Positions 11,531-13,842 of a stretch of DNA of 64,000 bases are shown in pieces. A model generated the notes under the pieces. That model worked only from the letters and a program-made list of their open reading frames with translations. It searched no databases and had not been told where the DNA came from. Source of the stretch: Podospora anserina (lineage: Eukaryota). The position numbers were made by a program, and so were the translations under genes. The stretch lies in contig CM030338.1 of the NCBI GenBank assembly GCA_017654855.1, positions 744,001 through 808,000 on the forward strand. The letters are read 5' to 3'. The stretch's first letter is position 1. Every line of letters begins with the position of its first letter.

Positions 11531-11945
11531 ATTGGGTGTGTTGTTGGGTCAAAAGCTTGTGTTGTTATGATTTTGCTTTGGGGACAGAAGAATGAAGAGT
11601 GAGGGATGAGATGCCAATGAATGACTTAAGAGGGCATACAGTAGGCCTCACACGTGCCCCCAATTCTTCAGTGACTGGAGAAGGTGTGGGCTATGAGGGG
11701 CTCGTAGAAAGCTGAGGCGAACACTGTAGGCCTCGCCCAGTCATCAAGCGGGGAGTCTACAACCTCTTAGACTCATGCGGATCCTTGCATGAGGCCTGCA
11801 AAGTTCTGCTTAAGAAGCAAACAATTCATCGAGGACTCAGCAGTCACCCTGTTATTAGGTGGACGGATTCTAAGCTCATCTTTTGGTCTCTTTCTCTTGC
11901 CTTTGAGACACTACCATAGGAGAACGAAACATCAACAACTCAACA
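11531..11945. promoter_or_regulatory. Bidirectional promoter viperin / NMP kinase with three YGAGGCCTRC motifs
   Basis: GTAGGCCTCA at 11641-11650, GTAGGCCTCG at 11726-11735 and TGAGGCCTGC at 11790-11799, in a 415-bp gap between divergent ATGs. Confidence 0.7.
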
Positions 11946-12775
11946 ATGGTGCCAGAAACCCGTAGAACTCGCGACTTGATCTTTGTCATCGGTAAAGTCA
12001 TCATAGTATCACTACCCCAACATTTCATTCTTGGCTGACCGCTTCTCAGGTGCTCCCGGAGCGGGAAAGGGTACCCTCTGCAAAATGCTGGCGGAAGCCA
12101 ACAACGTCGACCACCTCTCCCTCGGAGACCTTTTACGGCAAACCGTGTCATCACCCAACGCAGACCAATTAATCGCCGGGTGCATCCACCGTGGAGAGCT
12201 CCTACCAACACATATACTCCACGAACTTTTGTATCACCGCGTGGCCCAACCTGTATCCTCTACCGCTGGTCGACCCCTCCTGCTGGACGGCTTTCCCCGG
12301 CGGTTGGACCAGGCTAGAGAATTTGAAGCAGTGGCAAGTACCCGAACTGGCGCAACTTTACTCATTATTTCGGGAGCTGGCGGCTGAGTCTGCTAACTGA
12401 CACCTCGCAGTTTGGACCCCCAAAGCTCATTCTCTTCTTTGACTGTCCCGAAGATCTCGCGAGAGAAAGGGTTATCACGAGAAAATTAGGTCGGTTTGGC
12501 GACACAGTCGAGATATTCGACAAGCGGTATTCCGAGTTTCGCGAGTCAAACCCGCCAATCTTGAGCCATTACGCAAGACCCGAGGGCAGACTAATCACAG
12601 TATGTCGTATGGAAGAATACCATCTTCAGAATGAGTGTGTCACTAAGATGAATAGATCGACACCAGTGGCGCAACAGAAGAATCATATCAGAAGCTGCAG
12701 GCTGCTCTGGGTAGCAGTGAGGAATGGGCAGCTCTGACTTCCGAAGCCCCAAAGTTCCCCGTCGAATGGTTATGA
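11946..12775 (+). CDS. Nucleoside monophosphate kinase (adenylate/UMP-CMP kinase family, short LID); exons 11946-11991, 12050-12333, 12411-12599, 12656-12775
   Basis: The spliced product has DLIFVIGAPGAGKGT (P-loop split by intron 1), HLSLGDLLR, LLLDGFPRRLDQA, LFFDCPE..RERVITRKLGRFGD..IFDKRYSEF and IDTSG. All junctions are in frame. Confidence 0.9.
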
Positions 12776-12887
12776 GAAATGACAGACGATCAGGTCCACA
12801 GTCAGTGCAAGTCTAAACAGAGCTGAGAAATTATAGAGAAGCAGGCCTTTGGTATAGTTGTTGTACAATGCTGCCGACGGGTGGTGA

Positions 12888-13526
12888 TTATGATCTCTTC
12901 TTCCCCATCATCTCAAAATAAGCCGTCAACTTCCCCACCGGCCTCCCCTTCCTAAACGCCCAGCCATACCTCCTCATAAACTTCTCAATCCTCTCATCCA
13001 TCCTCTCCATCTCCCCCATCTTCTCCTCCTCACTCGCCTCCCCATCCAGCACCCTCTGCAGCTCCACCTCGCCAACCTCATGTCCAAAATCAATATGATC
13101 CCTCACAATCCTGAACTCCTCATCCGCAATCCACGTCTCACGGGTGGTAACAAAATCCGCCATGATCCCCAGCCCAAAATCCTCTTTTTCATGAGCTTGA
13201 ATCCCCGTGATATTCTCGACACAAGCCGCAATGTCGCTCACTCTGTTGAGCTCTTCAAACCGCGAGTTGGTAAAGTCACCGCCTTTCCGAATCTTGGCTT
13301 CCCATATCCCGTTGCGGCGGCGGATCCAGGCGCCGGAGGAGGAGAGGAGGTTAGACTTGTCGTAGTAGGTGTCGCGGATTGTTTGGAGGGGGAGTGAGCA
13401 AAGGGATTGGAAGGGTGGGATGCCGCCGTTTTGGGTAAGGTGGCGGACGGCGAGGGAGTGGAATTTGCGTTCGACTTCTAGGATGCAGGGGGAGAGGGCT
13501 TTCTGGAGGGGTGGTCGGATAGCCAT
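12888..13526 (-). CDS. CYTH-domain triphosphate tunnel metalloenzyme, thiamine-triphosphatase-like
   Basis: ExExK motif LEVERKF, plus DTYYD, WIRRR..WEAK, DFGHEVGEVEL and GKLTAY. Start taken at MAIRPP (13526). Confidence 0.88.
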   Translation of the reverse strand: MAIRPPLQKALSPCILEVERKFHSLAVRHLTQNGGIPPFQSLCSLPLQTIRDTYYDKSNLLSSSGAWIRRRNGIWEAKIRKGGDFTNSRFEELNRVSDIAACVENITGIQAHEKEDFGLGIMADFVTTRETWIADEEFRIVRDHIDFGHEVGEVELQRVLDGEASEEEKMGEMERMDERIEKFMRRYGWAFRKGRPVGKLTAYFEMMGKKRS

Positions 13527-13628
13527 TGTGAGGTGGGTGTGTTGGTTTTTGTGTGCATTCGGTTTGAGTGAGAAGTCGAGAGGATTAAAGGACACTGAGA
13601 AAAGTGTGAGCGAATGTGGTGAATGCAA

Positions 13629-13640
13629 TGAGGCCTACAG
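13629..13640. promoter_or_regulatory. Fourth copy of the YGAGGCCTRC motif upstream of the CYTH gene
   Basis: TGAGGCCTACAG. Its reverse complement CTGTAGGCCTCA matches CTGTAGGCCTC at 11724-11734 and GTAGGCCTCA at 11641-11650. It lies ~100 bp upstream of the ATG. Confidence 0.65.
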
Positions 13641-13842
13641 TCAGAAATTCTCACTTAAAAAGCTGTGTGTAACCAACAACTTTTGGTGGGGCAAGAGTGA
13701 ATGGGAGCAAGTGAGTGAGCGATTGGCCTGTGCTTGCAAACAGATTTGACAACGATTTGTAAACATCGCAAAATTACCATCTATGATACATCTGAAATTC
13801 CCATCACCCGTCCCCGGTTTCACACACCTCAAAATAACAAAC

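Follow-up and report, generated by a model that had tools for sequence, protein, structure and literature searches.

In animals, RSAD2, CMPK2 and other interferon-stimulated genes are controlled by the interferon-stimulated response element (ISRE) – the site of IRF/ISGF3, with a GAAA-repeat consensus. We know of no IRF, STAT or interferon in fungi. In fungi, several genes, dcl2 and qde2 among them, are known to be virus-inducible. In Neurospora, the available part of one report lists dcl-2, rrp-3, qde-2, a 6-16 gene, an RNA helicase and set-6 as virus-induced, and dcl-1 and qde-1 as not induced (PMC7648066); an excerpt of another indicates that Cryphonectria rdr4 behaves like Neurospora rrp-3 (PMC4182546). 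The accessible text of these two reports names no cis-element, and viperin does not occur in that of PMC7648066 (0 occurrences). Here we describe a 10-bp motif, YGAGGCCTRC, in a 64,000-nucleotide stretch of the Podospora anserina genome (GenBank assembly GCA_017654855.1, contig CM030338.1, positions 744,001 to 808,000, forward strand; hereafter the window), where it precedes a viperin gene, a UMP/CMP-kinase-like gene and a CYTH gene that together form a cluster.

Two other described systems are close to this one. In the OLD-ZAO system of Neurospora crassa, the product of stop-codon editing is a transcription factor that drives the antiviral response and occupies its own loci, with ZAO-2 reported to bind the old-zao loci; the review describing it contains neither a binding motif nor any mention of viperin (PMC12754623). 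A Fusarium homologue of ZAO has three fingers, according to the part of that report available (PMC11169179). For viperin, a preprint available in part describes an adjoining CMPK1-type kinase in fungi, production of mainly ddhUTP by tested fungal viperins, and a predicted triphosphatase/cyclase domain fused to some viperins (Shomar et al., bioRxiv 10.1101/2023.09.13.557418). The Podospora cluster shares the pairing of viperin with a CMPK1-type kinase and differs from the linkage in that excerpt in having a separate CYTH gene as third member and a proposed transcriptional control. In the papers open to searching, we found no description of the element, no named promoter element for fungal virus-induced genes and no report linking fungal viperin to mycovirus induction; the primary ZAO report (Honda, Yokoyama, Suzuki 2025) may hold a motif from chromatin immunoprecipitation.

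Since the motif stands before the viperin cluster and many other likely antiviral genes, it is probably a switch for fungal antiviral defence. Like the ISRE, it is often multicopy and precedes viperin, a linked kinase, Mx-type GTPases, a 6-16 gene and RNA helicases. Unlike the ISRE, it has a core, GAGGCC, that is unrelated in sequence, it also covers RNA interference (RNAi) genes, it accompanies a UMP/CMP (CMPK1-like) kinase, and the factor proposed to read it is a C2H2 protein under the control of RNA editing. The element thus appears to be ISRE-like in kind and in proposed function, with a different sequence and reader, and is not itself an ISRE. Compared with the induced sets of Neurospora and Cryphonectria, as far as the published sets were accessible, site-bearing Podospora genes match the dcl-2, qde-2, rrp-3/rdr4, 6-16, RNA helicase and set-6 types, and dcl-1 and qde-1, which are not induced, have their counterparts among the site-free genes.

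The four copies of YGAGGCCTRC reported in the original prediction are exactly those present in the window, and the distances from the nearest copy to each start codon – 111 bp for viperin, 147 bp for the kinase and 103 bp for the CYTH gene – agree with the range of about 100–150 bp that it gave. All four lie 100–300 bp upstream of the three cluster genes, and three are inside the 415-bp promoter from which viperin and the kinase diverge. Copy 1 (TGAGGCCTAC; 11641–11650, reverse strand) is the one nearest to viperin, copy 2 (CGAGGCCTAC; 11726–11735, reverse strand) bears the 3′ extension AGT, and copy 3 (TGAGGCCTGC; core 11790–11799, with flank 11786–11799, forward strand) has TGCA immediately 5′ and is the one nearest to the kinase. 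Copy 4, upstream of the CYTH gene (13624–13641, forward strand), has the full extended form, with TGCA at 13624–13627, the core TGAGGCCTAC at 13629–13638 and AGT at 13639–13641. Dinucleotide shuffles of the window (n = 100) gave a mean of 0.62 matches and a maximum of 3. Matches with one mismatch numbered 12, against 15.0 expected, so the enrichment is confined to the exact form of the motif. By themselves the four copies are real and moderately unusual; the local case is modest and the genome-wide case is strong.

Genome-wide, YGAGGCCTRC occurs at 321 sites in 36 Mb (nine contigs), against 183 for the reversed control pattern. The original prediction held that being common genome-wide would tell against it; the motif is indeed not rare. 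Eight clusters within 400 bp exist among the 321 sites (random mean 1.19, maximum 6 in 5000 random placements), and inspection by eye found no pair within 400 bp among the first 100 of the 183 control sites. Only two triples occur, one in the viperin/kinase promoter and the other in the dcl2 promoter, where 0.005 would be expected. Consistent with a functional transcription-factor site, promoter enrichment and clustering thus go beyond chance, and we judge from the sequence data that the motif is almost certainly a real regulatory element. About 50 of the 79 CGAGGCCTAC sites and most TGC-type sites lie outside the set that was annotated.

Several clusters were set aside as targets. The cluster at locus L014 and part of that at L016 belong to a separate 21-bp periodic repeat that carries the core at a few places, the cluster at L087/L213 sits in a laccase open reading frame (ORF), and the wider-spaced clusters L018, L019, L020, L030, L031 and L032 have coding or unrelated sites. 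The 21-bp repeat is degenerate, partly AT-rich and carries AGGCCT; we observed it at L014:4270-4310, L016:4280-4330, L050:1990-2050, L042:1980-2010, L048 and L092.

A further pattern concerns the RNAi genes. Family searches made independently of the motif identified two Dicers, two Argonautes and four RdRPs (RNA-dependent RNA polymerases); a search of the Atlas added confirmation of the RdRPs alone. The enrichment that the original prediction expected at such genes is present: for three of the eight, the 1 kb upstream contains exact sites (P 6.6e-5 for the genome-wide rate, 1.6e-3 if that rate is tripled). These are the Dicer that homologues name Dicer-like 2 (dcl2; sites at −775, −506 and −228), an Argonaute whose top PDB match is QDE-2 (−289) and an RdRP-helicase fusion (−170). 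A variant site stands at −195 of an RdRP that is 54% identical to a 1351-amino-acid Neurospora protein and that we label RRP-3-like by elimination and by its N-terminus. The second Dicer, the second Argonaute, QDE-1 and the one remaining RdRP have no site upstream. The presence and absence of sites at RNAi paralogues thus mirrors the split between virus-induced and non-induced genes in Neurospora. This pattern supports the original reading of the motif as a transcription-factor site co-inducing the cluster in response to virus or double-stranded RNA (dsRNA), with induction and factor binding being what we infer. It is very likely that the motif defines a virus/dsRNA regulon, to judge from the Neurospora and Cryphonectria orthologues of its genes. 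The RdRP-helicase fusion (L027; contig C6, 4.846–4.852 Mb), in which the helicase is of the SF1 type (AAA_11/AAA_12), comes as a fourth RdRP in addition to the three types of Neurospora.

Sites also precede genes of other defence-type families. In a table of 39 promoters, for which several start codons were estimated, ten have the core, five a variant and 24 no site; its labels sad1-like, dcl1, sms2, mgm1, vps1, SEN1 and UPF1 are presumed ones, some of them assigned by elimination. Two sites precede an Mx-like dynamin, and a second dynamin with a site has Mx proteins as its top PDB matches. As expected of an antiviral element, the housekeeping-type dynamins and six other helicases are site-free. 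A divergent pair of genes encoding a zf-3CxxC protein and an FtsJ methyltransferase has two sites, an OTT_1508 deaminase has one, and a fusion of kinase, HAD and uracil phosphoribosyltransferase domains (L017:1823-3925), which could feed UMP to the viperin pathway, has two copies ~184 and ~236 bp upstream of its likely start codon. A second CYTH gene (L064:2052-2978; contig C4, 487 kb), with an N-terminal extension and 43% identity to that of the cluster, has its own motif copy, so that within the Podospora genome a CYTH paralogue on another contig retains a site. Variant sites occur at the single 6-16 gene, at an SF1 helicase and in the old-A/zao-A region, and a gapped variant at old-B. A PADLOC scan of 28 ORFs returned only viperin, the SF1 helicase (MkoA, E 1.5e-42, plus an AAA tail) and a weak AAA_28 match.

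A duplicate of the zf-3CxxC locus, promoter included (L243; contig C4, 3.713–3.718 Mb; original on contig C2) keeps a site; as a copy mutated by repeat-induced point mutation (RIP), at 87% identity, it was not counted as independent. An extended variant site lies ~600 bp upstream of a gene with C5 DNA methylase and SNF2 domains (L245/L264; contig C5, 1.217 Mb), which we take to be of the DNMT5 type. Good sites also precede weakly annotated or unannotated ORFs – a small C2H2-repeat protein, a ClpB-type protein, a HET-domain gene and three unknowns (L016:4550-5131, L237/L262, L253/L265, L068, L045 and L019) – that are candidate new antiviral genes.

Aligning 25 sites at defence-type genes yielded a fuller motif, (A)TGCAn-YGAGGCC(T)RC-ARY, in which GAGGCC is invariant. 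TGCA lies upstream of ten of the 321 core sites, against 1.18 expected (one of the ten is the RIP-mutated duplicate). The second base 3′ of the core is a purine in 25/25 defence-gene sites and in 33 of 55 other TGAGGCCTAC sites (p 7e-5). Neither feature played a part in selecting core sites, so positions not used to pick the sites carry information; variant sites were accepted after inspection, which makes that step partly post hoc. The pattern TGCANYGAGGCC occurs 44 times genome-wide, against 13 for its control. Eleven of the 44 are at genes already flagged, and among the 33 new ones a prospective find precedes a TPR-SET gene, of the type of Neurospora's induced set-6.

We consider ZAO a reasonably probable reader of the motif, its candidacy coming from the zinc-finger recognition code. 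At 1.135–1.144 Mb of contig C6 are two OTT_1508 deaminase genes, each facing away from a gene that encodes three C2H2 fingers and has an in-frame TAG. This locus thus combines the hallmarks of a ZAO gene: three C2H2 fingers, a premature UAG and an adjoining OTT_1508 deaminase. As in Neurospora there are two old-zao pairs with an in-frame UAG; unlike in Neurospora, the Podospora pairs adjoin each other, with the zao genes convergent (L037, L038). Both ZAO-like proteins have R-D-N-R in finger 3 and E-K-D-R in finger 2 at positions −1, 2, 3 and 6. In selected fingers, R-1/N3/R6 target GAG and D-1/R6 target GCC (PMC1920264 Table 1). The finger 2 and 3 residues are kept in three ZAO orthologues, the three close ones among 150 proteins from a ZAO-finger profile search that returned mostly long poly-finger proteins. 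Glutamate at −1 also reads C. Finger 3 followed by finger 2 would accordingly be predicted to bind GAG-GCC, the invariant core, with finger 1 and the flanks left unaccounted for. Among the finger proteins inspected (12 of 16 similar loci), the combination of E-K-D-R and R-D-N-R occurs only in the two ZAO-like proteins and in an ankyrin-TPR protein. The old-zao loci themselves carry exact or variant sites.

The ankyrin-TPR protein (L206:2-5122; contig C3, 3.486–3.491 Mb) has repeated ZAO-like finger pairs between its two repeat regions, an arrangement that may represent a finger domain integrated into a protein of NLR-like type. Within the coding region of zao-B, upstream of the TAG, is one exact site – possibly a promoter for a short isoform like zao-1C.

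We propose the following mechanism. Virus or dsRNA would raise old/zao transcription, and OLD would edit the premature UAG so that full-length ZAO is made. ZAO would place finger 3 on GAG and finger 2 on GCC of the core sites, which would act in either orientation, about 50–800 bp upstream of a start codon, singly or clustered. It would then switch on the RNAi genes, Mx-like GTPases, helicases, old and zao themselves and the viperin cluster, where the three divergent-promoter sites would fire viperin and the kinase together and the fourth the CYTH gene. The kinase, perhaps together with the site-bearing uracil-salvage enzyme, would supply UTP, which viperin would convert to the chain terminator ddhUTP; the CYTH enzyme would remove or limit a triphosphate. 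Taken whole, a ZAO-bound, virus/dsRNA-inducible regulon element that serves as a functional analogue of the ISRE is the best explanation and a probable one. The fullest version – an undescribed cis-element that joins viperin–kinase–CYTH, RNAi, Mx, 6-16, RTP-like zf-3CxxC, Mokosh-like helicase and uracil-salvage genes in a single RNA-editing-gated regulon – is a tentative proposal that we hold as possible rather than probable.

A concrete site and a concrete candidate factor make it testable how fungi switch on antiviral genes, and they offer a first hint, from regulation, that viperin clusters serve antiviral defence in the fungi that carry them, with the unannotated site-bearing genes as candidate effectors. 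If the proposal is true, a gene programme resembling that of interferon was put together in this fungus with no interferon involved, and the motif is a sequence handle for finding new fungal antiviral genes. Should the ZAO paper already report the motif, the new part would be the target list, above all viperin.

A number of observations weigh against this proposal. The pattern was drawn from copies already seen, so we ran a look-elsewhere control that shuffled the two promoter regions and accepted any 10-mer with two twofold positions and four copies spread alike; 3 of 150 shuffles yielded an equal pattern (local p about 0.02). Chance appears to account for most of the 321 sites: of the 56 lone TGAGGCCTAC sites, 30 are inside ORFs of at least 200 amino acids, and among the other 26 the CYTH paralogue alone is recognisably related. 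Prospective yield was low, with 13 of the 33 new TGCANYGAGGCC sites in long ORFs and one giving a defence-type gene, and with no recognisable defence gene within 1 kb of the 14 sites of a second set based on the 3′ extension. The 24 site-free promoters include those of three non-housekeeping dynamins, the second zf-3CxxC gene and one OLD gene. Among virus-induced gene types, variant sites at the 6-16, SF1 helicase and TPR-SET genes stand beside an absence at all four PF01612 exonuclease genes, and the helicase and SET gene are putative counterparts, by type, of the Neurospora induced genes. Finger 1 is not the same in both ZAO-like proteins and gives no clear prediction for the third triplet; nor are the TGCA and ARY flanks accounted for by three fingers.

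Conservation also speaks against it. The original prediction looked to phylogenetic footprinting in orthologous promoters, and at long distance the result is unfavourable: 42 viperin promoters of other fungi (50–78% protein identity; 600 bp upstream scanned) contain no core, relaxed or extended form. These form a thinned, partly non-redundant set from 80 metagenome viperin loci. GAGGCC alone occurs in 11 of the 42 (8.1 in shuffles), the set contains no convincing de novo 7-mer, and it includes three Chaetomiaceae-like viperin loci, two with short upstream DNA. Among 29 CYTH promoters, only two near-identical loci show a look-alike, with two mismatches. Control of the cluster by the motif may thus be specific to the Podospora lineage, though the ZAO finger residues are conserved more widely. 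A Chaetomiaceae-like viperin/kinase promoter (L096, upstream of viperin) has, in place of the motif, two GGTGGCAA words, which we take to resemble the Rpn4/PACE element.

Some of these points bear on alternative explanations. In one, the regulon is the same and another, upstream factor reads TGCAnYGAGGCCTRCARY, with ZAO only downstream or an amplifier. A site of 16–18 bp is longer than three fingers cover, induction of old and zao has to precede any full-length ZAO, and an R-D-N-R finger is also encoded by other C2H2 genes; moreover, the review of OLD-ZAO describes the route of its activation by virus as unclear (PMC12754623), and Cryphonectria dcl2/agl2 induction requires SAGA and DCL2, according to the available part of that report (PMC7648066). 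Set against this, GAGGCC is precisely the part of the motif that never varies, and the finger pair that would read it is confined to the few inspected proteins named above. We consider a different upstream reader unlikely, while giving it appreciable weight. A broader non-self or stress element – for heterokaryon incompatibility, bacteria or calcium/Crz1 – that happens to include antiviral genes would fit the HET-domain genes near extended sites at 3 of the 33 new loci, a core site upstream of a NACHT gene, and the Crz1 consensus GNGGC[G/T]CA, which resembles the core. HET genes are numerous in Podospora, so some HET neighbours are expected by chance. The protein we take to be Crz1-like has R-H-D-R in the finger for the second triplet, which by the recognition code would predict GCG and not GCC; core position 6 is C in 25/25 sites, which follows from the pattern definition, and the clusters stand without relaxation. 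With recognisable targets nearly all of antiviral type, this explanation is improbable.

The remaining explanation, a post hoc 10-mer produced by chance together with a dispersed degenerate repeat that makes the clusters, draws on the 321 genome-wide sites, the local p, the lack of conservation in the other fungi examined, and the clusters lost to the 21-bp repeat (one cluster and part of another) and to the laccase ORF. It would have to accommodate the split among paralogues, the two triples and both unselected flanks, each significant. In addition, the 80-bp flanks of the 25 defence-gene sites have no homology except where windows overlap, so the sites are not one repeat. We regard chance plus repeat as very improbable, and favour the ZAO-bound regulon element.

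Of the cluster genes, the first (10556–11530, reverse strand) is a single exon encoding 324 amino acids with a hydrophobic N-terminal tail. Its product contains the motifs CxxxCxxC and GGE and resembles solved viperins over its full length, with PDB viperin entries as best matches (E 1e-146) and a PADLOC pVip match (E 4e-69). It is a member of the viperin (RSAD2) family of radical SAM enzymes, predicted to synthesize ddhNTPs, and is 100% identical to a protein named from Podospora pseudoanserina. The kinase gene (11946–12775, forward strand; adenylate kinase family, 212 amino acids) has exons at 11946–11991, 12050–12333, 12411–12599 and 12656–12775, a PF00406 match and uridylate kinase as top PDB match (E 6e-15). 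Joints at all three introns appear in contigs of 4 of 24 sequencing runs presumed to be RNA; such contigs give neither transcript starts nor levels. Intron 2 (12334–12410) has a GC donor and reads GC-AG. The CYTH/thiamine-triphosphatase-like gene (12888–13526, reverse strand) is a single exon encoding 212 amino acids and matches thiamine triphosphatase (E 8e-7). A domain search gave it no Pfam match; its within-genome paralogue has a PF01928 match.

The viperin–kinase–CYTH trio is widespread in fungi. Among the 80 fungal viperin loci, many of them redundant, the kinase is present in 35, the CYTH gene in 30 and the two together in 26; among loci of at least 7 kb, again with many redundant, both accompany viperin in 24 of 32. 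An AAA_28 (P-loop kinase-like) gene adjoins viperin in three of the 80 (L109, L115, L116) and forms part of a fusion protein in one viperin homologue (P0092); it is likely a fourth partner of fungal viperin. In Podospora this gene diverges from the RdRP-helicase gene across a common site-bearing promoter, and it provides one cross-species link.

A DUF6594 gene (9231–10423) is convergent with viperin, and one run contig extends from it into the viperin region. At window positions 10227 and 13400, all four presumed-RNA runs examined show A>G, most likely strain differences.

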